64,000 bases of DNA from an uncultured virus (IMG/VR IMGVR_UViG_3300042287_000568) (IMGVR_UViG_3300042287_000568); one strand, 5' to 3'. Numbered from the stretch's first letter, positions 9,861 through 26,287 are shown. Made by a program: numbers and translations. Notes: a model not told the origin generated them from the letters alone.

Positions 9861-10118
9861 TTAAACACAACCTGCAGGGTCGTTATTGAGGACGATGTTT
9901 TTGCGCTCAACCCAGCGACGCCCAGTTCCGAGCACTGGAGTTACTTCCAAGTCAAGGTGACCGTATCGTCGGCGAGCCCCGAGAACCATCACATTGACAG
10001 TGAGACCCTCTTGCTCAATCGTTCCGTGACAGTTGAGATATGCGTTTAGGTCTAACTTGCCATCTGTGGTGCGGGCTACCGCTGTGTCGTTAGTTGAGGG
10101 TGTGTCTACAATGTTCAT
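9861..10118 (-). CDS. Hypothetical protein (SH3-like beta protein)
   Basis: AAGGA RBS; 85 aa. Confidence 0.55.
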   Translation of the reverse strand: MNIVDTPSTNDTAVARTTDGKLDLNAYLNCHGTIEQEGLTVNVMVLGARRRYGHLDLEVTPVLGTGRRWVERKNIVLNNDPAGCV

Positions 10119-10222
10119 TTTTTCCTTTTAGTTGATTGTGGTTTGTAGGGTACTGGTAGAAAGCCCCCGTAACAACCTGTTGCCAGATGTCACGAGGGCT
10201 CCCGGGGCTTCGCCCTGAGTCT

Positions 10223-10705: not shown

Positions 10706-10706
10706 T

Positions 10707-10853
10707 TCAGTTTCTTTCTGTGTGTTGTGTGATTAGTAATGACAGAACGGCAACACGCTGTTGCTGATAATCATCTTCGTCAATGGCGTTAGTGCCTCTT
10801 AGGTATTCCAAGTGGTCAAGTTCCATGATTGCTTGTTCCATGTATTCGTTCAT
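10707..10853 (-). CDS. 48-aa hypothetical protein (not in ORF track)
   Basis: Leaderless start after a motif promoter. Confidence 0.55.
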   Translation of the reverse strand: MNEYMEQAIMELDHLEYLRGTNAIDEDDYQQQRVAVLSLLITQHTERN

Positions 10854-10991
10854 GATTACATACTATGGGTAGTAAGGCACAAACACAACCTGACGCAAAA
10901 CTTATCCTGCGAGTCCCGGCGCACACCCCAAAAGGGGGCGGGGTCGCTACCTGTCGGTGCGTGTCCCACCCCCCAATTCGCGGGGAGGCGA

Positions 10992-11411
10992 TTATTTGAT
11001 GAAGCGAGCCACACCCTTGTAGGTGCTGGTGTTGATTGTTTCTTCGTCAGTCATTCTTAGAACGGCAACAGCGTTTTCCAATTCTTCAATTTCGGACTTC
11101 ATTACCCAATCGTTTAGGTTTTCAGGCTCTTTCGGTGCTTTTACGGAAGCAGGGAACTCAATGGTGAGTTCGTACTTGTTCTGTTCCTCGTTGTAGCGGA
11201 AGTTGTGAGACTTGCTGACGCTAGTGACCTTTCCCTTGCCTGCTCGGAACATCTCGGCAAGACTGTCTTGGAAGTCCTTGACAGCCTTTTCGTATTCTTT
11301 TTTCGCCTTTTCGTTGTCGGCGACAGTTTTGTTACGCTCTGCGAGAGCCTTTTCTAATGCGTCAATCACCTTCTTGGTGCTGACCTTTACGCTAATTGGT
11401 TTTTGTGCCAC
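10992..11411 (-). CDS. Hypothetical coiled-coil protein
   Basis: AAGGAG RBS, GTG start, own motif promoter. Confidence 0.7.
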   Translation of the reverse strand: MAQKPISVKVSTKKVIDALEKALAERNKTVADNEKAKKEYEKAVKDFQDSLAEMFRAGKGKVTSVSKSHNFRYNEEQNKYELTIEFPASVKAPKEPENLNDWVMKSEIEELENAVAVLRMTDEETINTSTYKGVARFIK

Positions 11412-11529
11412 TTCGTTTCTCCTTTGTTGTGGTGTAACTCCACTCTAGGGGTAGTAAGGGACACTTCCAACCTTTAGATAGATTTGTTTAGAGGTTGGTA
11501 TTGGGGGTTACTAACCGTAATATGGAGTT

Positions 11530-11955
11530 ATGAATATCTCACAGTTAGAACTAATAAGCATGGTCAAAGAACTGGACAACCTCTTACCCGTTCCAGACAA
11601 CCCAGAGGACTACTCAACGCCTGTGGATTTTGGAACTACTGGCGTTGTTGTCATGTGCGATAGCGGAACTCCGCTGGTCATTAGCACATTTGACGAACCA
11701 ACAGAGATGTTTGGTAATCAGGAAATATCTATTTTTGCTAATGGCTTTGGTCATGTTTTTGTAGTCGCCTACGGTGGTGCTATGAATGTTGATTCAGAAG
11801 AAGCCCATGTCGCTCGTGTTATCTTCGGCTTAACCTGTGACGGACTACAAACTTCGCTCATGCGTTTCTTGGACACAGACGAAGTTATGTGTGATGAGAA
11901 CGGTGAGGCTGGAGATGGAAGTATCCAAACAGAACTCCGAAAGTTGTTCGGCTAG
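11530..11955 (+). CDS. Hypothetical protein
   Basis: Leaderless start after a motif promoter. Confidence 0.7.
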   Translation: MNISQLELISMVKELDNLLPVPDNPEDYSTPVDFGTTGVVVMCDSGTPLVISTFDEPTEMFGNQEISIFANGFGHVFVVAYGGAMNVDSEEAHVARVIFGLTCDGLQTSLMRFLDTDEVMCDENGEAGDGSIQTELRKLFG

Positions 11956-12199
11956 GGCTTTCCGCCACCGTTAGACGATTAGTAACACAGAAAAGACGAA
12001 CCCATGCCGCAGTCCCGAATGTTGAAATACTTGTTTATGATGCTCGTGTTCGCTTACCCCGTGCTGTTCGTGCACCCGGGGCTTGCGCTCATCTGCGCTG
12101 GCGTGAGCATTTGGGCTTGGTCGGTTGCAAAAGATGAGTTTCATAAAGAAATGTAAACCACAGGTTGTTGTTACCCCTTACTACCCGTAGAGTGAAGGC

Positions 12200-12373
12200 A
12201 TGAGTGATTACGAAACCTACATAACACAAACCCACCTAGACATTCGCACGGCAATCATTGCCTACAAGGCGTTGCCTGACACAATTCCCAACCAAGTCAA
12301 GAAGGACATCTGGCAAGCCCTCGTGGAAGCCCTGAACTTGGTTCAGAACGAAATGGCAAAGATTCCCTCGTAA
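12200..12373 (+). CDS. 57-aa hypothetical protein (not in ORF track)
   Basis: MSDYETYITQTH...KIPS; leaderless start. Confidence 0.65.
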   Translation: MSDYETYITQTHLDIRTAIIAYKALPDTIPNQVKKDIWQALVEALNLVQNEMAKIPS

Positions 12374-12412
12374 GAGGTTGTCTTTACCCCCTACTATCCA
12401 TAGAATGAAGTT

Positions 12413-12709
12413 ATGAGCAATACAATTACTTACGAAAACACATCAATCGGACAATGCCTGACCTACGCCAACGACGAGTGGGCATGGGTTATCGGAGACG
12501 CAATAGCGTGTACTGTCAAGAACAGCACCGCCATTGAGTACTGGTCGTACGACACCGTGCGTAACGAACTACTGGTGAAGTACAAGTCGTCACCAACTGG
12601 CTACACCTACTACGGCGTTCCTTTCTCAACCATGTTTGCACTTATGTCTGCTGACAGTCTCGGTGCCTTTATTGCAAAAGAAATCAAGCCCAACTTCTCC
12701 ATTGCGTGA
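12413..12709 (+). CDS. KTSC domain protein
   Basis: STAI...YD....L.V.Y....Y.Y.GVP....ALMSADSLGAFIAKEIK. Confidence 0.8.
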   Translation: MSNTITYENTSIGQCLTYANDEWAWVIGDAIACTVKNSTAIEYWSYDTVRNELLVKYKSSPTGYTYYGVPFSTMFALMSADSLGAFIAKEIKPNFSIA

Positions 12710-12746
12710 AGTTGGCATTACTGCTTACTACCGATAGGATAAGAGT

Positions 12747-13154
12747 ATGAATGTAACACCAATCTCGGTTGCCGAGAAAATAATCAAGGACACAGAACAC
12801 CAAATGAATAACGCCGTACTGTACGGAGTTACCGAAGATGGTTCCAACTTTGAGTTGGGTCGTGCGCCCGATATCTACGACCTGCTTGACAGCGAGTACC
12901 CAAGCAAGGGAATTGTCGGATTAGCCGTACACACAACTGGCTGGGCTGCGCCACTCAACGAAAACGGCGAAGTAGATGGGCAACCAAGCAAACACCCTGA
13001 ACGCAGACGAGTCGCCATTGTGACCGTCATGACAGCCGAAGGCATGGGTTCCGCCCTTTCGTTCGCTGACGAGCCTGACGATATCATCACAGACTCAAGC
13101 GGAACAGGGCAACTCTCCGACGCACTCAAAGAGTGTCTATTGAGACTGTCGTGA
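12747..13154 (+). CDS. Hypothetical protein
   Basis: Leaderless start; GWAAP...PSKHPERRRV. Confidence 0.7.
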   Translation: MNVTPISVAEKIIKDTEHQMNNAVLYGVTEDGSNFELGRAPDIYDLLDSEYPSKGIVGLAVHTTGWAAPLNENGEVDGQPSKHPERRRVAIVTVMTAEGMGSALSFADEPDDIITDSSGTGQLSDALKECLLRLS

Positions 13155-13444
13155 ACAACTGGCAAGGTGGTTGGGCTATCGTCAAAGACGACGACGGCAC
13201 CACGCCTCGCTACATATCTTTCGGTGAACGCCTTGAAGGCCCCGGCACGGATAGTTTCGGAGTTGCGGAAGACAAAATCTTTTGCTATTCCAACTTTGAC
13301 GAAGTGATGCAATTTTATAATGGTCACGCTGATGGTTGGCGCATGGTTGCATGGTTGCCCGTAGAAGTCGGGGCTCATGTCGCATCGCCCTCACTAACTA
13401 TCCCAATGCAACTAATAGACACTCAAGGAATTATTAACACCTAG
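13151..13444 (+). CDS. Hypothetical protein
   Basis: GTG overlaps the upstream stop (GTGA). Confidence 0.55.
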   Translation: MNNWQGGWAIVKDDDGTTPRYISFGERLEGPGTDSFGVAEDKIFCYSNFDEVMQFYNGHADGWRMVAWLPVEVGAHVASPSLTIPMQLIDTQGIINT

Positions 13445-13480
13445 GTTGTTTCTACCCTTTACTATCCGTAGAATGAAGTT

Positions 13481-13681
13481 ATGAATACAGACATAACAAA
13501 GACCCCCTTTTCAGAACTAGACCACGAAGTGCAGGACGCTTATGTCCTAGATGCGTTCAATGCCCTAGTAAATAGTGGTGGAGAAGTGCCGTACGGATTA
13601 GTGACAGGTGACGATGGTGACCATTGGGATTACCAGCCAGCGTGTGACTTGGCAGAGCAGAACTACAACGACGAAGATTAA
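13481..13681 (+). CDS. Small acidic hypothetical protein
   Basis: Leaderless start after a motif promoter. Confidence 0.65.
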   Translation: MNTDITKTPFSELDHEVQDAYVLDAFNALVNSGGEVPYGLVTGDDGDHWDYQPACDLAEQNYNDED

Positions 13682-13717
13682 GTTGTGTCTGTCCCTTACT
13701 ACCGATAAGATGAAGTT

Positions 13718-14143
13718 ATGAATGAAACAATTATCGCTACTGGCGAAATAACCAATTCCTGCAACTGTCTTACCTTTGAGGAAGATGGTGAAACAAAGTC
13801 GGTAGATACCGATTACGGCTCAACTTGCTACGGCGATTGTTGGCAATTTGCGGTTGAGGACTTTGCAATGATTACGGAAGAACTCCGTAACTCTAACGAA
13901 ACTGACTGGTGGAAAGTGTCTAACTTGCGCCTATGGAGTGGCGAAGTATCAGGATACTTCCATGCTAAGACGGTTGCAGACCTGATTGAGGGCATGACAG
14001 TCCGTAGCGACTGGCGCATGACTTACGAAATACACGCCGACAGAATTGAGTATTCTCTCTCGCACCATGACGCCCCAATGGGTAGCACAAGCACCTTGAC
14101 AGCCGTATCGGAAGAACAGCGTGAAGAATTGGGCTTGTACTAA
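13718..14143 (+). CDS. Acidic hypothetical protein
   Basis: Leaderless start after a motif promoter. Confidence 0.7.
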   Translation: MNETIIATGEITNSCNCLTFEEDGETKSVDTDYGSTCYGDCWQFAVEDFAMITEELRNSNETDWWKVSNLRLWSGEVSGYFHAKTVADLIEGMTVRSDWRMTYEIHADRIEYSLSHHDAPMGSTSTLTAVSEEQREELGLY

Positions 14144-14279
14144 TGAAGCCCCAACAACCCCGTGAGGAAGACGGACAACTCCATTACGGCAAGTGTCCCT
14201 GCAACGAGTGTGAAACTTGGGCTTGGGCATTGCTTGACTGGGAAGACCAAGAACGAAAAGAAGGAAGAGACCCACACTC

Positions 14280-14510
14280 ATGAAAGTAAAGACACTCTTA
14301 GAGATGCTCAGTCGCCACAGCCCCGAAGAAGAACTCTGCGTTCTGTATTGGGACAAAGAACAGTTTGACTACCGTGACGACGAACACGAAGTCCTCACCA
14401 CGGAAGCGTGGGCAGAAGTATGCAAAGAGTTTGACGAATGGGAAGACGCGGGGCACCAGGTCTCGGAGTGGATTGCAGATGCAGTCATAGAAAAAGTAGA
14501 ACTGAAATGA
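14280..14510 (+). CDS. Small acidic hypothetical protein
   Basis: 76-aa ORF in the operon. Confidence 0.6.
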   Translation: MKVKTLLEMLSRHSPEEELCVLYWDKEQFDYRDDEHEVLTTEAWAEVCKEFDEWEDAGHQVSEWIADAVIEKVELK

Positions 14511-14818
14511 GTCAAGGCAAAAGACTCACCGACGAACACTTGCGTGAAGTAGCCCGTGTATACAACGAGGCACTTGAGTCCCGTTCGGCGACTCAAGCGT
14601 ATGGTCACGTGCAGAGTACGGTAGCAAAACACTTTGACTTGCCGAAATCAACTGCGCAAAAACAAATCATGGCGTGCCGTGACCGGGGCTATATTCTGAC
14701 GGCTGAAGAACTTAGGTTGCGACAAAGAGTAGAAAAGTTGCAGAGAGAATATGACAAGGCAAAAGAAACGATAGAAAGGTTGTCGTTAGTCCTTACTACC
14801 GATAAAGTGAAACTATGA
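14507..14818 (+). CDS. HTH DNA-binding protein with coiled-coil tail
   Basis: VAKHFDLPKSTAQKQIMACRDRGYI; ATGA coupling. Confidence 0.6.
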   Translation: MSQGKRLTDEHLREVARVYNEALESRSATQAYGHVQSTVAKHFDLPKSTAQKQIMACRDRGYILTAEELRLRQRVEKLQREYDKAKETIERLSLVLTTDKVKL

Positions 14819-15180
14819 AACTTACTAGAGCACTTATTATCCCCGCCGAAGGTATGCCGACTACAACCATGGTCGCATCACCCGCAGGTGACTTCATCAA
14901 CGCCACAGTCGGCGGTTGGTTTGACTGCGTTCGTAGTGAGCGTTTCCATGGCTATGTCAATGACACGGGTCTGATTGACGGACTTCCGTTCAACCCGATT
15001 GCAAGCATTGTCTTTGGTCAAGTCATTTGTGGCAACGCCATTGCGTTCGGTTCTTTCAACTTGGAGAACGAGTACGATGGCGATGAACACCATATCGGTG
15101 AAGACATCATTGAGGCTGTGAAGCGCCAGTGGTTCTTGTGGAAGCACAACGCTGACGAACGAGAAATGAGAACTGTCTAA
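14815..15180 (+). CDS. DUF3846-like protein
   Basis: VGGWFD.V...YVND.G...GLPFNPIAS...ICGNA. Confidence 0.7.
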   Translation: MKLTRALIIPAEGMPTTTMVASPAGDFINATVGGWFDCVRSERFHGYVNDTGLIDGLPFNPIASIVFGQVICGNAIAFGSFNLENEYDGDEHHIGEDIIEAVKRQWFLWKHNADEREMRTV

Positions 15181-15462
15181 TGGGTTGGTACATTTACTGT
15201 TTCATTTTGGGTTTTGCTATTGCTAAGGCAGACTGGTCGGGAATGTTCTCAGATGCCCCGATGGATTGCACTCACGCATGGCAGAACAACCATTGTTATG
15301 TGTGTGGAGATGAACGATGAGACTCTTCCGCCACCGTAAGACGATTAGAAAAGTGATAATCCCCCCGAACGGCACTAAATCGTTCACGAACAAGGGCTCA
15401 TACTCGGGCTCGGGTCTCGGGGCTGTGCGTGTGAGCGCAGGCTTGCCGAACGCAGGAATGTT

Positions 15463-15483
15463 TGTGGATAAATCTGTGGATAA
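15463..15483 (-). promoter_or_regulatory. Two perfect DnaA boxes (TTATCCACA)
   Basis: TGTGGATAA at 15463-15471 and 15475-15483, just upstream of promoter 15501. Confidence 0.7.
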
Positions 15484-15535
15484 GTTTCTGAACGAAAAAG
15501 TTGTTTTTACCCCCTACTACCCCCATAATGGAGAC

Positions 15536-15700
15536 ATGAAGGGGAAGGAGGAAAAATTGAACAAGTCACATCGTGTGGCAATGGCGCAGGCTCTCTTGGC
15601 AGAGTTGTCTGAGGCTACTGCCCGTTACGGTGCTGGCAACAAAGGCGTAAAGCGTCTCCACCGCATGGTGCGAGCGATGGTCGCCGAGTTGCTCGCCTAG
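15536..15700 (+). CDS. Small hypothetical protein
   Basis: ATG at promoter TTG+35. Confidence 0.55.
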   Translation: MKGKEEKLNKSHRVAMAQALLAELSEATARYGAGNKGVKRLHRMVRAMVAELLA

Positions 15701-15714
15701 TAGCGCAACAGCAC

Positions 15715-15948
15715 ACCGAGTGAGACTCGGCGCACGGGGGAGCGTGGCAACAGAATCCCCCTACCACCCCCACAGGCGTTGCCGTGGGCGTTCACGGAGC
15801 ATGGCTCTGAGGCGCAGGGTTGGTGTCCCCCACACGGGGGCCCCGCTACCAGCCTGCCTTGCGTTGGAACTCAGAGTGCCGTGAATACCTACGGGAGCGT
15901 CGGGCGGGACCCCTTCCCTCATTCATTCCCGTCCGACCCCATTTTTTA
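15715..15948 (+). ncRNA. Candidate structured ncRNA ending in a terminator
   Basis: GC-rich nested stems (CCGAGT/ACTCGG, GGGGG/CCCCC, TTCACGG/CCGTGAA, CTCTGAG/CTCAGAG, GCAGG/CCTGC), then GTCGGGCGGGA/TCCCGTCCGAC and a T run. Confidence 0.5.
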
Positions 15949-15990
15949 TTGAGGGTTGTTATTGCCCTTTACTACCCGTAAGATGAATGT

Positions 15991-16161
15991 ATGCCTAAAA
16001 GAACAGCAGTAATACAAGAAGTGACTCAAAAGGAACTGGATAAAATAATCCAATGGGCTGACAGGCTCGGAGCACACTACGGGTACAACGCTTCCAAGCG
16101 TGGGTACCAAATCAATGGTGTCGTTTACCGAACGCCAGCGTTCTCGCTAGGGGACGAGTGA
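15991..16161 (+). CDS. 56-aa hypothetical protein (not in ORF track)
   Basis: MPKRTAVIQEV...; leaderless start. Confidence 0.6.
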   Translation: MPKRTAVIQEVTQKELDKIIQWADRLGAHYGYNASKRGYQINGVVYRTPAFSLGDE

Positions 16162-16332
16162 TGAGCGAGCCCCGACTTCTGTCTGACCTCATTCGTGAAG
16201 TGACTGGTTACTCCAAATGCTGGAACTGTGGAACTGTTGCGAAGGTGTCCGGGACTCCGCCAGTGTGCGCTAACTGTGAAAACGACCCAACAAAAAGTTG
16301 TGATTACCCCTTACTACCCGTAGAATGAAGTC

Positions 16333-16581
16333 ATGGATATAAAAGAAATAAGACCCGAACTACTGGCGTACTACAAAACCTATGTAGGTAAGCGAGTACA
16401 ACTAATCAGTTGCTCTGACCCGTACACGAAACTTGTTCGTGGCGATGAGGGCATTGTTACTTCCGTAGATTCGTTCGGAACTGTTCATGTGAACTGGGAC
16501 AACGGCTCTAGTCTCGGACTTGTGTACCGAGAAGATAACTTCTCTTTGGTTGAGCCTCTTCCGCCACCGTCTGACGATTAG
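16333..16581 (+). CDS. DUF4314-like protein
   Basis: GKRVQL...DPY..L..G.EG.V..VD..GTVHVNWDNGSSLGL....D. Confidence 0.8.
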   Translation: MDIKEIRPELLAYYKTYVGKRVQLISCSDPYTKLVRGDEGIVTSVDSFGTVHVNWDNGSSLGLVYREDNFSLVEPLPPPSDD

Positions 16582-16650
16582 AAAACACAAAAACCCCTCA
16601 CCCCGCTGCGAGCAGGGTCGGGGCTGCGCCCACGACGAAAACTGTCGCAC

Positions 16651-16672
16651 TTTTCCACAACCCTGTGGATAA
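16651..16672. promoter_or_regulatory. DnaA box pair (one 8/9, one perfect)
   Basis: TTTTCCACA 16651-16659 and TGTGGATAA 16664-16672, upstream of promoter 16691. Confidence 0.6.
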
Positions 16673-16750
16673 GTTTATTTGTGCATGAGGTTGTCTTTAC
16701 CCTTTACTACCCATAAAGTGAAGTATCAAACAACACAGAAAGAGGAAAGT

Positions 16751-16936
16751 ATGAGTGACTGCACACAGACACAACCTAATTGCGAAGAACCACCCGAATA
16801 CGAGTTCTCAAAAAACGAGACCGTAGATACGGATTGCGGCGATTGCGGCGAGACATTTAGTTTTACGCCTGACGGTGGCTGGCTCATATGGTACGCCTAC
16901 GAAGTTGAGTGCCCAAATTGCTACGGGGAGTGGTAA
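16751..16936 (+). CDS. Small zinc-ribbon protein
   Basis: GAGG RBS; CGDCG...CPNC. Confidence 0.6.
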   Translation: MSDCTQTQPNCEEPPEYEFSKNETVDTDCGDCGETFSFTPDGGWLIWYAYEVECPNCYGEW

Positions 16937-17166
16937 TGATTACGGAAACTGAAATAACGGTGGCACTTCCGAAAGGAGACCCTGAATGGGTGGACAAGTT
17001 CCTCATCGCTTGGGGCGCACTTGCCGAGTCGTTAGACTCGTTCTACGAACTCGCCGAGCAGACGCCACTTGGCTTCATGGGACTCGTGAACTCGGGGCTC
17101 AAAATCACGGAGAAAGCACTCATTGACATTGAGAAGGCAGTTGTGAAGCACAACATGGTGAACTGA
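16936..17166 (+). CDS. Hypothetical protein
   Basis: GGAG RBS, TAATG coupling. Confidence 0.6.
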   Translation: MITETEITVALPKGDPEWVDKFLIAWGALAESLDSFYELAEQTPLGFMGLVNSGLKITEKALIDIEKAVVKHNMVN

Positions 17167-17440
17167 TGGGACTGATTACGAACTACATTGCGTACAGAGT
17201 TGGCAAGCGAGTTGCGACACGCAGTCGCCCTTCGGGAGCCCAGCATTACGCCGTTCAGGGCGACCCTGAGTGTTTGAACTACGAGTCGTTCTGCAAGAAC
17301 TACGGAAGTTGCGATGACATGGAATGTGAGTACGAGCAATGAACCCGGGGCACCCACGTGCGACGCCCCTAATGCGAGAACTTCTGAAATAATCCGCAAT
17401 AAAAGTTGTGATTACCCCTTACTACCCATATCATGGAGTT

Positions 17441-17674
17441 ATGAAAGAAAAATACACAGACACTTTTCAGGGCTTACTTGACATGGAGTACTACTCCATC
17501 GGCGTAACTGGCGCTGAGGCGCTATGCAATATGCTTGGCGACTTCAACGATGGTAGCCTCACCGAGTTTCTTGCCGAGCAGGAAGTCGCTGAAGCCGAGT
17601 TCCTGATGACCGTGAACCGTCTCGCTGTGAAGTGGGCTAGCGAGAACGTACTGAACGTGATGGTGAAAGGGTGA
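17441..17674 (+). CDS. Hypothetical protein
   Basis: Leaderless ATG at TTG+35. Confidence 0.65.
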   Translation: MKEKYTDTFQGLLDMEYYSIGVTGAEALCNMLGDFNDGSLTEFLAEQEVAEAEFLMTVNRLAVKWASENVLNVMVKG

Positions 17675-18132
17675 CGCTCATCTGCACTAACTGCGGTGTG
17701 GGGGCCCCGGCTACTCAGCAACAAGGCAACTTTATTGACTACGGCTGGTCGCTAAACAACTGCTCTCTAGGTCACTACGGTGGCTTCTCTGACAACTTCC
17801 CATGTGATGAGAGAAATCTGTCTACTGACAAACAGTACGCACACTTATGCCATGACTGCTGCGTGAAGATGCTTGAAGCACTTCCGGGGCTGGCTAAGTA
17901 CCTGTTTCCCAACGGCGGTGGTCACCCGAACGTAAATGGCTTTCCAAACAGCGGTAGGAACACAAGTGTTGACGGCACTGGCATAGACATTCCCTCGTGC
18001 TGTGAGTACGCATGGACTTGGAGTGGAGAGTGCGAGGGTTGCAATGACCCAATCACTTACTTCGGAGCCCCGAATGGCGGATGGCGCAAACGAGAGTGCC
18101 TTAGATGCAAGGTGAAACAAATTCCAGAATGA
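17671..18132 (+). CDS. Cys-rich zinc-binding hypothetical protein
   Basis: Multiple CxxC; GTGA coupling. Confidence 0.6.
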   Translation: MTLICTNCGVGAPATQQQGNFIDYGWSLNNCSLGHYGGFSDNFPCDERNLSTDKQYAHLCHDCCVKMLEALPGLAKYLFPNGGGHPNVNGFPNSGRNTSVDGTGIDIPSCCEYAWTWSGECEGCNDPITYFGAPNGGWRKRECLRCKVKQIPE

Positions 18133-18320
18133 GGTTGTTATTACCCGTTACTACCCGTAAGATAGAAGTATGAAGTTGTGAAACTGGCGGACACGCGAAG
18201 ACACAACCTCTACCTACAACAAGAGAGTAAACAATGGAATATTTAGGCTTTCTTGCAACAGTATGTTTTTTATTCGTACTGGTTGCTTACACAATCAAGC
18301 ACTATTAGACTCGGGGCTAC

Positions 18321-18512
18321 ATGGCTCAGTACAAATGCGACTTTTGCGACCACGAAGTAGACCCTAGGTCAGCAAGCGTTTATCACTTAATTACAGGGTG
18401 GGCTAAAGGCGCAACACAGAATGTGAAGTATGTGGACACAAACCACCACAAGTACGCACATGAGTTCTGCATGCCCCGCAATGCCGGTGACGACCAACCA
18501 TCTTTGTTCTGA
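18321..18512 (+). CDS. Small zinc-finger protein
   Basis: CDFC...HEFC. Confidence 0.55.
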   Translation: MAQYKCDFCDHEVDPRSASVYHLITGWAKGATQNVKYVDTNHHKYAHEFCMPRNAGDDQPSLF

Positions 18513-18564
18513 TAAATCTCAACGAGAGGTTGTTGTTTTGACTTCTTATCGGTATTATGGACTT

Positions 18565-18876
18565 ATGAACAACATTACTATGACAGGAACAAACCTCATG
18601 GTTGATGGAAAGGTTGTTGCATCTATCAGCAACTTCCCATCTCTCCGTGATGCTTTGTTTGACAAATTGACTCGTACCGAAGCCGTGTATCTAGCAGTAG
18701 CCCTAATGGGTGAGGCTCGCACAGTTGCCGTAGCAGAACTGCTTGACATGGACAAGGCTAACGCAACCAAGCGTCTGCTGTCTTTGGAAGAAGAAGGCAG
18801 AGTGGAAGTCATTGACGACTGCAACACACTCGGTAAGCCGGGGCGTCCTTCACGAGTCTGGGCAATCGCCGACTAA
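18565..18876 (+). CDS. Winged-helix (MarR/TrmB-like) DNA-binding protein
   Basis: VAELLDMDKANATKRLLSLEEEGRV...GRPSRVW; leaderless start. Confidence 0.7.
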   Translation: MNNITMTGTNLMVDGKVVASISNFPSLRDALFDKLTRTEAVYLAVALMGEARTVAVAELLDMDKANATKRLLSLEEEGRVEVIDDCNTLGKPGRPSRVWAIAD

Positions 18877-19002
18877 ATGCTTTCCGCCACCGTTAAAGGA
18901 TTAGAAACACTTAATTCTTGTGACGCAAGGAAACAAAAACCACTAAAACCGTCGGAATAATCCGATGTTGCTTTTACCCTTTACTACCGATAGACTGGAA
19001 TT

Positions 19003-19170
19003 ATGAAAGATGAACTAACAGGAAACCCCTATGTCTGCGAACACGCCAGATATGTCCGCCTCTACGACCTCACCGGGGCTCAAGCCGCAGGCGTACTGCT
19101 GTGCGAAGACGAGTCTGAGCGTGACCAAGCCTGCTTCCGCTTCATTGACATCAACGCCCGTGCTCGGTAG
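19003..19170 (+). CDS. 55-aa hypothetical protein (not in ORF track)
   Basis: Leaderless ATG at TTG+35. Confidence 0.55.
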   Translation: MKDELTGNPYVCEHARYVRLYDLTGAQAAGVLLCEDESERDQACFRFIDINARAR

Positions 19171-19214
19171 CCCAGCATTTGTGTTTGCGACAATGTAGGG
19201 ATAATGTTTAGACT

Positions 19215-19565
19215 ATGAAGTACAGACACGACAGACCAATGAAAAACATGAGCAACAGCGAGTTTATTACTTTTGTGCTTGAACTACCAGACGAGAAGGT
19301 GGATGCTGGGCTCATGGACGAGTGTTTTCATCGCTTGGTTGAGTTGGAGGGTCAGCGTTTTGATTTTCATCAGGCATTACATTTTGTTATAGATTGCGTA
19401 GAGGATAAGTCCCGACTGGACGGACTTGACCTAGTTGAGTTGTGTGTCATTGCAGGGTCAGACGGAAAGCCTCGTGATAACAGCGAAAGTAACCCAGACC
19501 TTGAACTTGAAGAATGTGAGCCGTTCCTTCGTTCTTGTGGGGCTTACGAAGATGACGAAGATTAG
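19215..19565 (+). CDS. Acidic hypothetical protein
   Basis: 116-aa ORF. Confidence 0.6.
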   Translation: MKYRHDRPMKNMSNSEFITFVLELPDEKVDAGLMDECFHRLVELEGQRFDFHQALHFVIDCVEDKSRLDGLDLVELCVIAGSDGKPRDNSESNPDLELEECEPFLRSCGAYEDDED

Positions 19566-19601
19566 GTTGTTTTTTTGACCTCTTATGGATAGATTGGTGT
19601 T

Positions 19602-19805
19602 ATGAGTAATCCTCCACTTCCATCCCGTCTGTCTTGCCTGCGCTTTGCGTTGGCTTCCGTCCTTGTGCGCTACGCCTTCCGTGTGTGCCCTCTCATCTTC
19701 GCTCCTCGCTTCATTGAGGAGACGGATGAAATAAGTCAGTACAAAGGCGAACTGTGGGCTGACAACGACTACATCAGTAACGACGACTGGAGTTTCCACA
19801 ACTGA
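19602..19805 (+). CDS. Hypothetical protein
   Basis: Leaderless ATG at TTG+35. Confidence 0.55.
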   Translation: MSNPPLPSRLSCLRFALASVLVRYAFRVCPLIFAPRFIEETDEISQYKGELWADNDYISNDDWSFHN

Positions 19806-19820
19806 GAGTTTTCTCAAACG

Positions 19821-19853
19821 AAAGCCATCTGCCTTCGGGTGGGTGGCTTTTTT
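19821..19853. terminator. Intrinsic terminator between convergent genes
   Basis: AAAGCCATCTGCC-TTCG-GGTGGGTGGCTTT followed by T run. Confidence 0.75.
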
Positions 19854-20118
19854 AGTTTTCCTCGGGGCTGAGAAGACGCATCTGTTTTTTCACTTCTGTG
19901 TAACAGGAGTTGAACGCATCTCCGAGTGACTCAAACTTCTTTGATACAGCCCACACATCGTCTTCACCGCGAGTCCACGCCAGAACGTCCCAGAGCCCCG
20001 AGACGCGTCGCATCTCAAAGTCCATGTCATGCAAGTCAAAGAACTTCGTGTATTGAGGAATATCGTTCCCTGCGTATGAGTTGTCTTCTTCGGGGCTACT
20101 CCCCCACGTGCTTGGCAT
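19852..20118 (-). CDS. Hypothetical protein
   Basis: TATTCT-N6-ATG leaderless start at 20118. Confidence 0.6.
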   Translation of the reverse strand: MPSTWGSSPEEDNSYAGNDIPQYTKFFDLHDMDFEMRRVSGLWDVLAWTRGEDDVWAVSKKFESLGDAFNSCYTEVKKQMRLLSPEEN

Positions 20119-20211
20119 AAACGCAGAATACCACAAACTTTATTTTTGCTGCAAGGTTGTTTTTACCTTTTATTACCGCTATGATGAAGTTATGAATGGG
20201 GGGAGGTGAAA

Positions 20212-20334
20212 ATGATTACAACCACGACTTGCTGGTTTTGCGGTGTGCTATGCCCAATCCAAGGCTTTGTGGAACTGCCCAACGGCGGTACCGAGCCTGC
20301 AGGGACTTGCCCTGACTGCGAAGCAGAACAATAA
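20212..20334 (+). CDS. 40-aa zinc-ribbon protein (not in ORF track)
   Basis: GGAGGTG RBS; CWFC...CPDC. Confidence 0.6.
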   Translation: MITTTTCWFCGVLCPIQGFVELPNGGTEPAGTCPDCEAEQ

Positions 20335-20610
20335 CCACACAGCCCCCGAAGCCCTCCGACAGGACAGGCTAGGGGGCTTTTCGCTGTCCCCTTTTATGCG
20401 CCTTCGTTGTTCTGCCCGCAGCCCCGGAGCCAGCACCAGAACGTTCTGTAACCAGATGCGAGAGTCGGGGCTCGCCGGCCGCCGGGCCGTAATTTAGAAA
20501 GTAGCGTCACGCAATTTTCTAGTTGCTTCACGAAACCTAGTCAGTTTCATTATCTAACCCAGTCAGTTTCGTAACGCTAGTAGGTTGCGTAATGCTTGTT
20601 AGGCATGCCT

Positions 20611-20630
20611 AATGTTTCACGTGAAACATT
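20611..20630. promoter_or_regulatory. parS: Chromosomal-type parS site
   Basis: AATGTTTCACGTGAAACATT, a perfect 20-bp palindrome containing the parS consensus TGTTTCACGTGAAACA; intergenic. Confidence 0.85.
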
Positions 20631-20688
20631 CTGAAAAAAAGTTTGGGGTGAGGTTGTTTCTACCCTTTACTATCTATATATTGGAGTT

Positions 20689-20901
20689 ATGGATAAGCAA
20701 CAAGTAGCGGAAATCGCAAGACTGGCAGAAGAACTAAGAGGAGCCCTCAAGGCCCTGACTGGTCCGAGTGGAAAGATGACATCATGGTGGTTCGGAAAAC
20801 CAGAGGACTGGCCCGAGGGTCTGCCGTGGACCGACGAGCAAATCGCAGCAGCAAGTAACGCTCTCGGGTCGCTGACCCTAGACGAAGAATACGGGGACTG
20901 A
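20689..20901 (+). CDS. Hypothetical protein
   Basis: Leaderless start. Confidence 0.65.
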   Translation: MDKQQVAEIARLAEELRGALKALTGPSGKMTSWWFGKPEDWPEGLPWTDEQIAAASNALGSLTLDEEYGD

Positions 20902-20938
20902 GGTTGTTATTACCTCTTACTACCGATAGGTTGGAGTT

Positions 20939-21235
20939 ATGAAGAAAATAGCCAAAGACATCAAGAAACTTGCCGAGGCTCTGGGCATCACGACAGACGA
21001 ACTGTTGAAGGAGATGGAAGTCGGTTCGCCGACGAAACCCTTCACGGTCTCAATCTCGTTCGGTCGCCTGAGCCAGATGGAGAGTTTCGCCGAGGAATAC
21101 CTAGCCAAGACGGGGCTTGCCCTGTACCACGCCGACGCACTTGACTACGAGTACAAGGGTCGTGCGCCAGGAAATACATTCGTGGTTCGTAACCCGAACG
21201 ACACGCACAAGCCTGAGGACATGAGAGTTTTCTGA
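20939..21235 (+). CDS. Hypothetical protein
   Basis: Leaderless start. Confidence 0.65.
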   Translation: MKKIAKDIKKLAEALGITTDELLKEMEVGSPTKPFTVSISFGRLSQMESFAEEYLAKTGLALYHADALDYEYKGRAPGNTFVVRNPNDTHKPEDMRVF

Positions 21236-21356
21236 CTCTCAGTCTTCTGGTGGGGCCCCGAGAATTGCTTTCCGCCACCGTTAAAGGATTAGAAACCCTG
21301 ACACACCCCCTGGGGTGCGGGATTTTTTTTGATTTTTTCGTCGGTTCAGAACGGTA

Positions 21357-21377
21357 TGTGGATAAACCTGTGGATAA
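21357..21377 (-). promoter_or_regulatory. Two perfect DnaA boxes
   Basis: TGTGGATAA at 21357-21365 and 21369-21377, upstream of promoter 21394. Confidence 0.7.
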
Positions 21378-21517
21378 CTTTTTTGGTTGCAGGTTGGAAC
21401 TACCCCTTACTACCGATAGAGTGAAGGTATGAATGAATACACAGTCCCCGAGATGCCCGACCATTGCCATTGCAGTAGCAACGGCGAGTGCAATTACTGT
21501 CTCAAACTGATAGAGGA

Positions 21518-21811
21518 ATGATGGAGAGAATTAGTCCCGCTCAGCGTAGAGCGCAACGACAAGCCGAGTACAAGCGTCTCTCACGAAACAGTAAGCGCAG
21601 ACGGGCGTACTACCTCAAATTCGTAGCCGACAGACCAGCCCACTGTAACGCATGCGGGGCCACGAAGACCGCAAAAGAGATGGTTGATTACGCACGACGA
21701 GAAGTAAGCGTCAAGAACAAGTGTCGTCCGTGCTTTGATAAAGAACTAGAAGAGGAATACGGGTACGAAGACGAGTACGAAGACGACCGAATTTGGTGGA
21801 AGACGGGATGA
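21518..21811 (+). CDS. Basic zinc-finger hypothetical protein
   Basis: CNACG...CRPC; follows a 30-aa leaderless Cys-rich ORF at 21429-21521. Confidence 0.6.
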   Translation: MMERISPAQRRAQRQAEYKRLSRNSKRRRAYYLKFVADRPAHCNACGATKTAKEMVDYARREVSVKNKCRPCFDKELEEEYGYEDEYEDDRIWWKTG

Positions 21812-22204
21812 TGTGTTATTGTGACACGATGAGACGACCAGCCGAAACCGAAGAAGAAATAGCAATCTCTAAAAAGAAGTTGCTAGATGCTTGGGAAAAG
21901 GCGAAGATGAATTCTCCATTCTTTACTCCAAAAGTTCCCGACGAGAAGCCCCGAGAAGACTAAGTTTTACAAAAGACCTCACACACCCCCATTCATTGAG
22001 GCGCAAGTGCCCCCACCCTGTTTTTGTTCAAACTTTTAGGTGGGGGCATTTGACGTATTATGGGTACATGACAAATGAACCAGACGACGGGGCTCCGAAA
22101 GAGCCGGAAGAGCCGAAGGAAGAACCGCAACCACGCCCTCGCTTTCTTCAGAGAAAACGACGCACGGGTTGTCGTACCTGCTTCTAACCTGTAACCTGCA
22201 AGGC

Positions 22205-22534
22205 ATGGTAGGAAAAGACGCAAAAAACTTTGACCCGACTGATGTCATGATGAGAACCAAGAGACCCCCGACACCCGCTCAGGTGCAAGAGCATCTTGAA
22301 GCGATGGGCGAGACGACCCTTCTGATGGACGGCTTTGGGGACGCACTCATTGGTTTCTCACAACGCATAAACGAACCGTTCCTTGCTGTGTACTCATGGG
22401 AGAAGATGATGGAAGTCTGTATGGTTCGTGACGGTATGGACGAAGAAGAAGCAGAAGAGTACATCAGTTACAACTGCACCGGGGCTTGGGTGGGCGAGCA
22501 AACTCCAATTATTGTTATGCCCGTGTTGTACTGA
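22205..22534 (+). CDS. Conserved phage hypothetical protein
   Basis: DGFGDALIG...AVYS...EEAEEYISYN..GAWVGEQTP. Confidence 0.7.
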   Translation: MVGKDAKNFDPTDVMMRTKRPPTPAQVQEHLEAMGETTLLMDGFGDALIGFSQRINEPFLAVYSWEKMMEVCMVRDGMDEEEAEEYISYNCTGAWVGEQTPIIVMPVLY

Positions 22535-23054
22535 TGAGCAAAGAAGTGTCTCCCGAAGGCAATGTCAATGTCACCATCGCCAATGTCCTCAAATGGTTTG
22601 AGGAGTCAGAGAGTTGTTTGTTTCACAACCATGCTGAGCGAATCCCGATAACGAAGACACAGAGCCCCGACTTGGTTCAGTCAATAATAGACAGTCACTT
22701 CTGCTAGTTCCGCCGACTAGATAAATCTTTCTCACCATGTTGGTATTAGTGTTTACTACCTGTAAAGTGTAACTATGGAAGTACAAGAAACACGTAAACC
22801 AAAAGCATGGCGTAACGGCAGATACATTTACTGCATGACTCATAGTCAGACACAGTGCTACGACATTGAACTCCTCTATGGAGACGACCCTGCGATAGAC
22901 GGTGGACGTAAGTGCGATTGGTGCAAGGGGAGACTCAAGTGAAGGACTGGACATGGGAAGATATGCAGGCGTATGACGACTTCATGGAGTCATGGGCTAA
23001 CGCTTACCTGTGCGAAACAGCGAACGAAGACGGGGCCGCCGAATGCGCATAAGT

Positions 23055-23429
23055 ATGCGTTCATTAAGTATTGGATTCATTTCTTTAGTCGCATTGACGG
23101 GAGTTGTGAAACTGTCGCATCTTTCCACTGAGTTTTTTCTACCTACGCATTGGGCTTACAATGACGCATACAACCCTAATGCTGAACCGGTGTATGGTGA
23201 TGAGTGTGGATACTCTTACGCAGAAGGAGAACAGTGCGATTCCGTGTTGCTCAACAACACCGACTACGAGCAGTATATTCCATACCATACATACATCGGC
23301 AGTGATGAATATGTTTACTGGGACGAGGAAACGCCTCTCGGGCCATTGGTAACGTTCCTTGTGATATATGGAGTCGGCACTTACTTCGCAGTAAAGAAAC
23401 TATACGACGAAGATGGGGTTAGCGAATGA
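23055..23429 (+). CDS. Membrane protein
   Basis: N- and C-terminal hydrophobic helices. Confidence 0.55.
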   Translation: MRSLSIGFISLVALTGVVKLSHLSTEFFLPTHWAYNDAYNPNAEPVYGDECGYSYAEGEQCDSVLLNNTDYEQYIPYHTYIGSDEYVYWDEETPLGPLVTFLVIYGVGTYFAVKKLYDEDGVSE

Positions 23430-23677
23430 CGTTTGACGACCACTACGAAGACGGTACCTACGAAGAGTTCGTGGATAGAGTGTACGCCTCTTGGGAGCAT
23501 CCAGCGAATCAGAAGCGTCTAGGTCAGGTGTTCTTCAACAAACTCCACAAGGAGCGCCCCGCAATAGCGGCTCACATTCAAGGCACCATGTTTGACCCAT
23601 TCCACCAAGACTACATCCACATCAAGGTGGCTGAAGTGGTGAAGACGTTGTGGTACGAAGAGAACAACAAGGACTGA
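23426..23677 (+). CDS. Hypothetical protein
   Basis: RLGQVFFN.L....P......GT.FDPF pattern. Confidence 0.65.
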   Translation: MTFDDHYEDGTYEEFVDRVYASWEHPANQKRLGQVFFNKLHKERPAIAAHIQGTMFDPFHQDYIHIKVAEVVKTLWYEENNKD

Positions 23678-23715
23678 AGGTTGCAGTCGCCTTCTACTAT
23701 CCGTATAATGGAAGT

Positions 23716-23820
23716 AGCCAGCCAACTGGCGGTGGTTAATCGGATTCGGTAAGACCACACAATTAGTTTCGCTAACGGGAAATGGGAAATAAACCTCAGC
23801 CTTCGGGTTGGGGTTTTTTC
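23716..23820 (+). ncRNA. Candidate small RNA of about 105 nt
   Basis: Motif promoter with TATAAT but no ATG at +1; three hairpins and a UUCG terminator with T run. Confidence 0.55.
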
Positions 23821-23976
23821 TTGTTTTATCGCACGTTCCCGCTGCAGCCCCGTCGTTGTCCTCTTGCGTCTAGACGGTTACTCCGAATTCCTTTCCGCCA
23901 CCGTTAGTAGATTAGGGATGATATTTTCTGGCTGCCGTAATCCGGGACTTCGGCTGATAAGAATCTACAAAAAGGC

Positions 23977-23985
23977 TGTGGATAA
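23977..23985 (-). promoter_or_regulatory. Perfect DnaA box
   Basis: TGTGGATAA upstream of promoter 24003. Confidence 0.6.
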
Positions 23986-24037
23986 CTTTCTTTTGTTTGG
24001 GGTTGCTTTTACCTTTTATTACAGATAGAGTGAAGAT

Positions 24038-24301
24038 ATGAGTAAATACATCAAAAGACGCATAGCCGTTGGCATTATCGTATTGGTGCCAGTAGCCCTG
24101 CTATTCAGCAACGTTATTGACAGCAAGTACAACTACTCGTGTCCCACTGCAAGCGTGACAGTAGAGCGAGGCGACACACTCTCAGGCATTACCGAAAGAC
24201 ACTGTAAGGGGCACACACTTCAAGCAAGTTGGGACATAGCCAATGAGCGTGGTACTAGCACGCTTGATACAGGCGACATCATTCAATTGAGCGATAAGTA
24301 A
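24038..24301 (+). CDS. Membrane-anchored LysM domain protein
   Basis: N-terminal TM segment; VTVERGDTLSGI...LDTGDIIQL. Confidence 0.75.
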   Translation: MSKYIKRRIAVGIIVLVPVALLFSNVIDSKYNYSCPTASVTVERGDTLSGITERHCKGHTLQASWDIANERGTSTLDTGDIIQLSDK

Positions 24302-24334
24302 GGTGAAGCGCAAACGCTGGGCTATGATGCGGGT

Positions 24335-26248
24335 GTGAAAAAACTCAGCCTTGATGATGACCACCTAGTCCTTGACTTTCCTTACGACCCCGAGCAGGTT
24401 GTAAAGGTTAAACAGATAAAGGGAGCCAAGTGGGACAAGGTCGCACGTGTGTGGCGAGCCCCGATGGTGAGTCTCAGCGAAGCAAGGCAGTTCGCACAGG
24501 ACAACGACTTTGACATTGACCCCGAAGTCCTGTTATTCACGTTGCCTACTCACAAGAACGAGGCGAAGGGCATTAACTACGACGGCAAATGGCTTACCAT
24601 GTCTTTTGGTTATGACAGAGTAATGATTCAGTCAGTCAAACAAGTGGCAGGAGTTACTTGGGACAAGAAGACGATGGCATGGCGAGCCCCGGTTACCAGT
24701 ATTGCCGACGTTGTGAAGTGGGGAGACACCTTCAAGCAACAGGTTCCTGACGAAGTTCGTGAAATGCTCAAAGAAGTAGACACATCGCTGTCGGAACTTA
24801 GAGAAGCATCACGGCTGACTGACGCCGAGATTGAAGTGTCGGGACTGACGGGAACGTTATTGCCGTATCAAAGGGCAGGGGTTGCTTACGCAAGTAACGC
24901 ACGGCGCACTTTCATCGCAGACGAGATGGGCTTGGGGAAAACATTGCAAGCAATTGCGACATTGGAACATGTAGGTAATTCGTACCCAGCGGTCGTCGTT
25001 TGCCCCGCAACACTCGTGCTGAACTGGAAAGCGGAATATAACAGGTGGCTTCCACACATCAGGGTTGCAGTCGTAAAAGACCGTAAAGAGTTTCCATCTG
25101 ATTATGATGTGGTTGTTATTAGTTATTCTAACCTTAATAAGTGGGAAAAGCAACTCTCAAACCACAAGTCTTACGTTTTTGATGAGAGTCATTACTGCAA
25201 GACGCCAACAGCACAGCGAACAAAGAGTGCGGTGAAGATTGCACGTTCAGCCCCGAAGAACGGAATTGTTCTGTGTTTGACGGGAACTCCAGTTACCAAC
25301 CGACCTGCCGAGTACGCAAGCCAACTAAACATTCTTGGAAAGTTAGATAAGTTCGGAGGAGAGTGGGGTTTTTACCGACGCTATTGCGGGGCCTTCAAAG
25401 ACAAGTGGGGCCAATGGCATCTTGATGGACATAGCAATCTTGATGAACTAAATGACTTGCTTCGCTCAACTTGTTACATAAGGCGCACAAAAGAACAGGT
25501 TTTATCAGACCTACCCCCAGTTGTTCATGACCCCGTGCTTGTTGACGGGACTGCAGCCGGCATGAAGGAATACAAAAAAGCCGAAACTGACATCGTTGAG
25601 TACCTCATGCAACGAGCAAAAGAGATAGCACTTGAACTTGGGCTGAACCCTAACTCCGCAGCGGTTGTTGCAAAAATCAAGGCAGAGTCAAATCAGCACT
25701 TAGTTCGCCTGTCTGTATTGCGCCGTCTGTCAGCCAAAGCAAAGATGCCCGTCATCAAGGAGTGGGTGGAGTCCCGTGTTGCCGAAGGACGCAAAGTCGT
25801 AATCGCTGCTCACCACAGAGATGTAGTAGATGAACTCGCACTTGCGTTCGGCAACCTACGCATTCAAGGGGGCATGGACATCAACGAGATAGAAGCGCAG
25901 AAGCACAAGTTTATGACATTGCCATGTGAAGAAGCACCAGTCATTGTCCTCTCAATCCAAGCGGCAAAGACGGGGCACAACCTGCAAGTCGCACAAGATG
26001 TTTTGTTTGTGGAATTACCGTGGACACCCGCCGATGTAGACCAAACTTATAGTCGCTGTCATAGGCTCGGACAGAAGTCGTCAGTCACGGCGACCTACCT
26101 GCTGTGTGATGGAACGATAGATGAAGATATCTACTCTCTCATTGAGCGCAAGCGTGGTGTGGTGAATCAGGCTGTGGACGGAGGTCCCGCTGCTGAAGGT
26201 GATTCTCTAGGGGAACTGCTGATGGGTTTATTTAAAAAAGGTGTTTGA
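24335..26248 (+). CDS. SNF2-family (HARP/SMARCAL1-like) helicase
   Basis: Two HARP-like repeats (VKQI.G..WDK....WRAP), ADEMGLGKT, DESH, LTGTP, QTYSRCHRLGQ. Confidence 0.9.
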   Translation: MKKLSLDDDHLVLDFPYDPEQVVKVKQIKGAKWDKVARVWRAPMVSLSEARQFAQDNDFDIDPEVLLFTLPTHKNEAKGINYDGKWLTMSFGYDRVMIQSVKQVAGVTWDKKTMAWRAPVTSIADVVKWGDTFKQQVPDEVREMLKEVDTSLSELREASRLTDAEIEVSGLTGTLLPYQRAGVAYASNARRTFIADEMGLGKTLQAIATLEHVGNSYPAVVVCPATLVLNWKAEYNRWLPHIRVAVVKDRKEFPSDYDVVVISYSNLNKWEKQLSNHKSYVFDESHYCKTPTAQRTKSAVKIARSAPKNGIVLCLTGTPVTNRPAEYASQLNILGKLDKFGGEWGFYRRYCGAFKDKWGQWHLDGHSNLDELNDLLRSTCYIRRTKEQVLSDLPPVVHDPVLVDGTAAGMKEYKKAETDIVEYLMQRAKEIALELGLNPNSAAVVAKIKAESNQHLVRLSVLRRLSAKAKMPVIKEWVESRVAEGRKVVIAAHHRDVVDELALAFGNLRIQGGMDINEIEAQKHKFMTLPCEEAPVIVLSIQAAKTGHNLQVAQDVLFVELPWTPADVDQTYSRCHRLGQKSSVTATYLLCDGTIDEDIYSLIERKRGVVNQAVDGGPAAEGDSLGELLMGLFKKGV

Positions 26249-26287
26249 GAGGTTGTATCTACCTCTTACTACCGATAGTATGAAGGC

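Follow-up and report, generated by a model that had tools for sequence, protein, structure and literature searches.

DnaA boxes at a fixed distance from four early promoters of an uncultured freshwater phage may link early genes to the host replication initiator

Does a phage place some of its early genes under the control of its host's replication initiator? The question is raised by a 64,000-nt stretch of DNA from an uncultured virus (IMG/VR IMGVR_UViG_3300042287_000568), here called the window, in which a composite of a polar 12-mer (TTCCGCCACCGT), one or two DnaA boxes and a promoter occurs four times. A preliminary description had listed these four cassettes, and every coordinate and the common order of elements proved right. 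It proposed that host DnaA regulates a subset of early promoters, which would amount to cell-cycle sensing, or is sequestered in a datA-like way. We find that the boxes are well supported as true DnaA-box sequences, and we put at roughly even odds (about 0.5) the reading that host DnaA binds them and modulates these four promoters. The 12-mer appears to be a different device.

Perfect copies of the 9-mer TGTGGATAA number eight in the window against 0.47 expected for its composition, and none of 100 shuffles reached eight. They begin at 15463, 15475, 16664, 21357, 21369, 23977 and 41306 on the plus strand and at 41261 on the minus strand. Six of the eight stand upstream of four sigma-A-type promoters, all on the plus strand as first described, and these six match the DnaA-box consensus TT(A/T)TNCACA, as quoted in bioRxiv 10.1101/866236. 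Cassette 1 carries a perfect pair with a 3-bp spacer (15463-15471 and 15475-15483) before the promoter at 15501-15538. Cassette 2 has an inverted pair (16651-16672), in which the one-mismatch box TTTTCCACA on the minus strand (16651-16659) precedes the perfect plus-strand box (16664-16672) and the promoter at 16691-16726; both boxes are perfect in G002, one of two relatives (G002 and G003) followed here in detail. Cassette 3 again holds a perfect pair with a 3-bp spacer (21357-21377; promoter 21394-21431), and cassette 4 a single perfect box (23977-23985; promoter 24003-24040), all on the plus strand. The last box lies 17, 18, 16 and 17 nt from the -35 TTG in the four cassettes, within the 16-18 bp originally reported, and the distal boxes of cassettes 1 and 3 lie 29 and 28 nt away. 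With the start as +1, the proximal box is computed to span about -61 to -53 (centre ~-57) and the distal box about -73 to -65 (centre ~-69), one 12-bp step beyond it.

These four are members of a larger promoter family, which counts 26 copies, six of them leftward (5986-11464, minus strand) and 20 rightward (12171-26259, plus strand), with the consensus aGGTTGnnn-TTACCCnTTACTACC-nnTAnAnTG-aagnn-ATG, that is, a -35 TTGnnn, a conserved 17-bp spacer and a -10 TAnnnT. The A of the ATG is the seventh nucleotide past the -10 in 20 of the 26, which points to leaderless messages; leaderless starts are common in actinobacteria. Cassettes 1 (TTG 15501, -10 15524-15529, ATG 15536, with the ATG at the seventh nucleotide and a predicted 54-aa open reading frame (ORF)), 3 (ATG 21429) and 4 (ATG 24038) are of this kind, and cassette 2 has a 5' leader, its ATG at 16751 following a Shine-Dalgarno-like aagaggaaag. 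We infer that the promoters are early from their type and the small genes downstream. Of the six rightward promoters that follow an extended form of the 12-mer, four have boxes, and the remaining 14 have none (p = 0.003, hypergeometric, calculated by hand). When 11900-24100 was searched for repeats, only promoter, 12-mer, box and terminator-like hairpin families came up, which bears out the statement that the spacers between elements are unrelated in sequence. The four cassettes are best explained as operon-boundary control regions within an early region that may be called hyperplastic. PHROG and Pfam scans assigned no function to the genes downstream of the boxed promoters.

We examined conservation in 16 related viral contigs, which were collected with the extended 12-mer as search pattern, merged where they were pieces of one another and sorted into lineages A-G by eye. 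Together with the window these contigs hold 143 distinct promoter-like sites, with 39 box hits within 120 nt upstream against 0.5 in shuffles. Twenty of the 39 lie at a gap of 16-18 nt and 13 at 28-29 nt, all in the plus orientation and from lineages A-E; the few that remain are inverted or lie farther off. Lineages C, D and E keep the geometry although their promoter spacers are unlike those of the window. Alignments of orthologous cassettes show boxes and promoter kept while the stretch from 12-mer to box contains indels or is unalignable. Cassette 4 orthologues have two TGTGTATAA boxes in lineage B and one TGTGGATAA in lineage C, TGTGTATAA differing from TGTGGATAA at the free position of TT(A/T)TNCACA. 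In lineage E, which is GC-rich, TGTGGACAA is found as well, the box favoured by high-GC actinobacteria. Four lake runs contain a population variant of cassette 1 with 27 listed substitutions in 15302-15545 and none within the boxes, an observation that is weak alone. The earlier argument for selection gains from the relatives: in five diverged lineages the boxes stay at one set position close to the promoter, with flanks that differ.

Is the box the host's own? We infer that the phage infects a freshwater actinobacterium and has a genome of roughly 120-130 kb. The host assignment is made because the window encodes two WhiB genes and an Rpf-like transglycosylase, its major capsid protein is ~48% identical to counterparts in Brevibacterium and Gordonia phages, and the stretch comes from lake water: it was found in 24 listed sequencing runs, stored as contigs, and all 24 are lake-water metagenomes. 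Related IMG/VR contigs reach 118 and 132 kb. Tandem TGTGGATAA-N3-TGTGGATAA pairs occur at more than 122 loci in bacterial genomes, and three of the eight actinobacterial loci examined with Pfam directly adjoin dnaA. The pair lies between dnaA and dnaN in a metagenome-assembled genome (MAG) of Aquiluna from a lake, 20 bp before dnaA in a lake Actinomycetota MAG, and between dnaA and dnaN in a Rubrobacteraceae MAG with 15 boxes in 3 kb. Two further loci lie beside rnpA and between parA and gidB, and the other three near ssb-rplI or near a sortase or glutamine amidotransferase with a rhomboid gene. Moreover, the 21-mer TGTGGATAAaccTGTGGATAA of cassette 3 is identical to a 21-mer in the dnaA-dnaN spacer of the lake Aquiluna MAG. 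A Bac_DnaA_C domain was found neither in G002 nor in G003, whose completeness was estimated at 79% and 88%, and a phage-encoded DnaA DNA-binding domain is therefore an unlikely reader of the boxes.

On the reading that we favour, host DnaA would act as a transcription factor on four of the 20 rightward early promoters. Each cassette would comprise a strand-fixed phage motif of ~30 bp that closes the upstream gene, sometimes with an intrinsic terminator; one or two host-type DnaA boxes at a fixed position, which would form an operator centred near -57/-69; and a strong promoter of the sigma-A type, its transcript mostly predicted to begin with the A of the ATG. How much initiator the host has, or in which nucleotide state, would thereby bear on a subset of early operons, and some early genes would probably depend on the state of host replication. 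That the boxes keep a fixed distance and a single orientation argues for contact with RNA polymerase. Positions upstream of the -35 are the usual site of activators or of contacts with the alpha subunit and, because the boxes lie there, we lean towards activation: an activator, or interference with the alpha subunit of RNA polymerase, would fit better than a classical repressor. DnaA acts as a transcription factor at promoter-proximal boxes in Escherichia coli dnaA and nrdAB, in the Bacillus subtilis dnaA regulon and at lambda pR. As at those promoters, the sites here are consensus 9-mers, single or paired, at a fixed position beside a housekeeping-sigma promoter, and the same arrangement is seen at host-type dnaA promoters and oriC; unlike them, the boxes would serve the early genes of a virulent-looking phage and lie upstream of the -35, at about -57/-69. 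A search of literature outside subscription journals found no description of DnaA boxes wired to actinophage early promoters.

Several observations weigh against control by host DnaA, or against its generality. The label of host DnaA box rests on putative relatives of the host. The contigs are kin by descent, and counts over them, such as the 39 box hits, overstate independence. In G003 the boxes of the cassette 1 orthologue have decayed and the early arm retains only one perfect box, from which it follows that the function is dispensable or lineage-specific; among relatives the number of boxes per early arm varies from 1 to 7, with six to seven perfect ones in lineages A and B. Within the window, extended 12-mers at 11960 and 18882 have no box, and one boxed promoter of G002 lacks the 12-mer. 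When the comparison is confined to the ~10 rightward promoters with at least 100 nt of upstream non-coding DNA, the association of boxes with the 12-mer (4/6 against 0/4) is non-significant (p about 0.07, hand calculation). The boxed promoters look no weaker than the unboxed ones, so that a need for an activator is not evident. Finally, among the matches listed, the promoter geometry was seen at 4 of 120 tandem-box sites in other viral contigs and 2 of 126 bacterial sites; the former figure implies that such wiring is not general to phage DnaA boxes.

An alternative that we regard as unlikely is that the boxes titrate or tether DnaA, the phage DNA either soaking up the initiator as datA does or being held on entry by membrane-bound DnaA, as in a model for T5. 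A datA-like sink is a dense box cluster in one short locus, independent of promoters. We rejected such a sink for the boxes of the cassettes: they stand alone or in twos, at 15.4, 16.6, 21.3 and 23.9 kb, and every site is fixed relative to a -35. The sequestration offered in the preliminary description accordingly fares poorly, since it leaves the 16-18 nt spacing unexplained and the boxes are spread over 8.5 kb with no single cluster. The T5 comparison is closer. According to bioRxiv 10.1101/866236, DnaA boxes of the non-coding first-step-transfer region of T5-like phages invariably come as pairs with 3 bp between the two boxes, a spacing shared by two of the four cassettes; T5, with its injection-stop (iss) region, is likewise a large phage with several consensus or near-consensus boxes in non-coding DNA that is expressed first. 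In the same source, the boxes of T5 are placed within inverted repeats in a long untranslated region and have no tie to promoters, whereas here a gap of 16-18 nt separates each proximal box from a -35, and single sites occur too. Titration or tethering would also suit the six to seven perfect boxes per early arm of lineages A and B and the frequency of tandem boxes in viral contigs (at least 119 loci). Neither, however, needs a fixed distance from the -35, yet 20 proximal boxes in five lineages keep the 16-18 nt gap, and the swing in box number between relatives speaks against both. Being fixed, the geometry speaks for transcriptional control more than for titration of the datA kind.

It is also improbable that the 9-mer is read by another protein sharing the DnaA-box sequence, either a phage regulator or a host factor other than DnaA. 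Such a reader would account for the conservation past the 9-mer, which the repeat search gives as cTGTGGATAAsTTT in all four proximal sites, and the role might be filled by one of several small phage proteins, of helix-turn-helix type or unknown, among which is one at 33364-33966 that resembles sigma region 4. On the other hand, the variants that occur are those that DnaA tolerates or prefers (position 5 is free and TGTGGACAA appears in the GC-rich lineage), the same tandem arrangement recurs at actinobacterial dnaA/oriC, and neither G002 nor G003 was found to encode a DNA-binding domain of the DnaA type.

Quite unlikely, in our view, is that the composite is only a recombination scaffold, a mobile regulatory cassette like the promoter-early stem-loops (PeSLs) of T4-type phages. 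Its elements would then be carried along together by descent and by the shuffling of modules, and the boxes would no longer regulate anything. When the window is compared with G002 or G003, the rightward arm proves highly mosaic, with homology breaks often at promoters, and one whole module differs between relatives: after the helicase gene G003 has a small gene, 12-mer, box and promoter where the window has a bare promoter. The likeness to PeSLs, a precedent described in PMC2839356 and PMC4122927, lies in a repeated composite of terminator-like element and early promoter before variable small genes in a hyperplastic, mosaic early region, and the present arm shows this with its 26 promoters and with hairpins in two of four cassettes. 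The cassettes differ in an extra host-initiator site, a strand-fixed 30-bp motif and promoters fused to leaderless starts. A mere scaffold does not, however, predict boxes conserved base for base while neighbouring spacer bases change, the absence of all 27 substitutions of the cassette 1 variant from its boxes, or a -35 spacing kept across lineages with differing promoter spacers.

That the boxes belong to replication origins activated by transcription from the adjacent promoters is very improbable: T-rich tracts do follow the proximal boxes and another conserved cluster of boxes is present at 41261-41314, in an intergenic stretch of 480 bp, but the phage encodes an O-like initiator, a helicase loader and a primase-helicase of its own, it would be unusual to find four or more origins in 8.5 kb, and no repeated trinucleotide tract resembling the DnaA-trio motif was seen by eye between box and -35 in the four cassettes.

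The box cluster at 41261-41314 reads TTATCCACA-ggg-TGTGGACAA ... TGTGGATAA, with a repeated CACAGGG, in the ~480-bp gap between a 2176-aa gene and a leaderless phosphoesterase gene at 41484. Similarly spaced pairs occur once in G002 (66282/66327) and once in G003 (37913/37937). The cluster could be an origin or a divergent control region.

The 12-mer requires a separate account. The window contains ten copies, nine exact and one with a single mismatch, all on the plus strand, against 0.17 expected; none of 100 shuffles reached ten. They begin at 2864, 3741, 4711 (the mismatched copy), 9361, 11960, 15326, 16559, 18882, 21270 and 23893, and so span both divergently transcribed arms of a 22-kb early region. 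The six copies of the rightward arm are extended to cT-TTCCGCCACCGT-N5-GATTAG-(A/G)AAC, ~30 bp in all. Those at 11958-11986 and 18880-18908 lie 4 and 5 nt past the stops of ORFs 11530-11955 and 18430-18876 and are followed, with no box, by promoters 12171 and 18974. In cassette 1 the extended motif (15324-15352) is 5 nt past the stop of ORF 15180-15320; in cassette 2 (16557-16585) it overlaps the last codons and TAG stop of ORF 16333-16581; and in cassettes 3 (21268-21296) and 4 (23891-23919) the 12-mer begins 34 and 215 nt past a stop. Terminator-like hairpins accompany the motif in two of the four cassettes, after it in cassette 3 (an intrinsic-terminator-like hairpin with a T run at 21304-21335, between motif and boxes) and before it in cassette 4 (a strong hairpin with a T run at 23791-23826), all on the plus strand. 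The four copies of the leftward arm (2864-9372) have the core only, and what follows it on the right is not the extension but often CAGTGCTA. Lying antisense to the genes, they stand at gene boundaries, 5 and 8 nt (4711 and 9361) or 75 nt (3741) from the stop of the upstream leftward gene or, at 2864, within the last codons of an ORF; their positions are kept in G002 and G003.

The same restriction and polarity are found in relatives. In the whole records of G002 and G003 the motif is confined to a single ~22-kb region, with 10 of 10 copies on one strand in G002 and 10 of 11 in G003, where the exception is a one-mismatch hit 11 kb outside the region; no opposite-strand 12-mer was found in the 16 related contigs. 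All 38 distinct extended 12-mers of lineages A-G are followed by a promoter-like site, at distances of 39-265 nt, a variation that excludes a fixed helical position of the 12-mer on the promoter. Extended copies are evenly spaced, at a mean of 2.4-2.6 kb in lineages A-D and 1.8 kb in lineage E (coefficient of variation 0.12-0.32 in A-D; P = 0.0002-0.014 against uniform placement, lineages A-E being related and so not five independent tests). The genes between the evenly spaced copies differ among lineages. The extended motif is invariant across phages of differing GC content and genes, which points to a conserved phage protein or enzyme that is directional on DNA. Among 185,579 bacterial species genomes only three hits to it were found, inside unrelated sequence, and we judged them to be chance.

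Is the composite nevertheless one unit? Speaking for this are the restriction of the window's boxes to promoters preceded by the extended 12-mer, the extra module of G003 and the place of all perfect boxes of lineages C, D and E, 83-160 nt past a 12-mer. The preliminary description had made the 12-mer part of the DnaA device, which does not hold: it stands also at two box-less promoters and at four sites in the opposite arm, and G002 has a boxed promoter that lacks it. We read the cassette as two devices that share intergenic regions, a polar motif at the end of a unit and a DnaA-box operator fused to the next promoter; the 12-mer would mark the upstream edge of promoter-bearing intergenic regions.

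Several roles for the 12-mer were considered. A coding role was rejected, as its reading frame relative to neighbouring ORFs differs between copies. An Rfam search over 1-30000 gave no match at E up to 0.1, so no known RNA family accounts for it; an RNA-level role would suit the rightward copies just past stops and not the antisense copies. A T7-type RNA polymerase family was not found in G002 or G003 by a search that, having no positive control, is weak, and sigma region 2 was not found in either; the motif thus gains no support as a promoter for a phage polymerase or sigma factor. Contig pieces from four lake runs end and overlap at 18879-18907 and 21267-21295. We rejected these as DNA ends and attribute them to breaks of the assembly graph at an identical 29-mer repeat, contigs hiding the ends of molecules. 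The 12-mer is a separate DNA-level signal, most likely the site of a phage-encoded directional protein that would nick DNA or form a polar barrier or insulator. One candidate is a polar barrier to rightward transcription or replication set by a phage protein, which would explain the single absolute orientation in both arms; another, by analogy, is a strand-specific nick site; a mere recombination linker is a third.

The nick-site candidate draws on PMC3517423, which gives nick consensus sequences 5'-TACT/RTGMC-3' for phage tf and 5'-CGACxxxxxCCTA/CTCCGG-3' for the phiKMV group, and places all nick sites of tf in one strand across two converging transcription units. The 12-mer resembles these in lying on a single strand across opposing units (10 of 10 in the window), as in tf, and in being bipartite with a free 5-nt spacer, as in the phiKMV group; it differs in being restricted to the early region, always at gene boundaries and evenly spaced. 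Stoperators of cluster A mycobacteriophages (PMC6550527) are likewise short, asymmetric, multi-copy motifs of actinobacteriophages, mostly intergenic and biased in orientation, whereas copies of the 12-mer share the same absolute strand whichever arm they lie in and do not occur outside 22 kb. We rejected a stoperator assignment since the orientation does not follow transcription: all ten copies are on the plus strand, yet the genes at 2.8-9.4 kb are on the minus strand. DnaA-box operators and PeSL-like cassettes are kinds already known, of which the present arrangement is a variant, and the polar motif comes in addition to them.

The preliminary description had also joined parS to the DnaA cassettes, and a perfect 16-bp parS (TGTTTCACGTGAAACA) is indeed present on another promoter of the family, at 20613-20628, its palindrome reaching 20 bp. 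It ends 24 nt before the -35 TTG of promoter 20660. The palindrome stands upstream of a promoter in lineages A-D, with only the central 2 nt varying, and in lineages C and D it directly follows DnaA or DnaA-like boxes. G002 and G003 encode a 270-aa protein with a ParB_N domain elsewhere in the genome. Just upstream of the window's parS, 20520-20580 holds two direct repeats of agtcagtttc and a gcctaacaagcattacgc-like inverted repeat, these parS-associated repeats falling within the 375-bp intergenic region before promoter 20660. A broader proposal, which we hold only tentatively, is that the early promoters of a family of large freshwater actinophages may incorporate cis-elements of the host chromosome, DnaA boxes on four and a parS-like palindrome on another, and be switched by host replication-initiation and segregation proteins, with the 30-bp motif every ~2.4 kb as a new directional signal, either a programmed nick site or a polar insulator against read-through.

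Other features of the promoter family and of the window are as follows. Promoters 18526 and 19563 have the conserved spacer TTTTGACyTCTTAT in place of TTACCCnTTACTAC, with the same -35, -10 and leaderless ATG. Because these two share a different conserved spacer, the element suggests a recognition sequence with two classes. Promoter 18141 leads to short ORFs, and a small RNA was not found downstream of it. Downstream of the cassette 4 promoter come an 87-aa ORF and then the gene for an SNF2-type helicase (24335-26248). The window, with a GC content of ~47%, also encodes SSB and a Toprim/AAA primase-helicase among its replication genes, and megablast against deposited phages gave zero matches to it. 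An ORF at 34469-40999 on the minus strand (2176 aa) has only weak C-terminal matches (DUF5872 and two PHROGs of unknown function), and a frame of 2105 aa in G003 has a weak sigma-region-4-like match. Domains typical of leading regions of conjugative elements or of anti-defence regions abound in the early region (1-30000): DUF932, DUF3846, DUF4314, KTSC, Api92-like DUF1281_C, DUF1599 and SSB. A weak NikA-like protein lies at 865-1206.

The four natural boxed promoters and their unboxed siblings of the same family are ready test and control constructs, and the strand-fixed, evenly spaced 30-bp motif is a puzzle of its own. If DnaA does control these promoters, a virulent phage would read the replication-initiation state of its host before committing a subset of its early genes, a form of host-physiology sensing that would be relevant to slow-growing freshwater actinobacteria.

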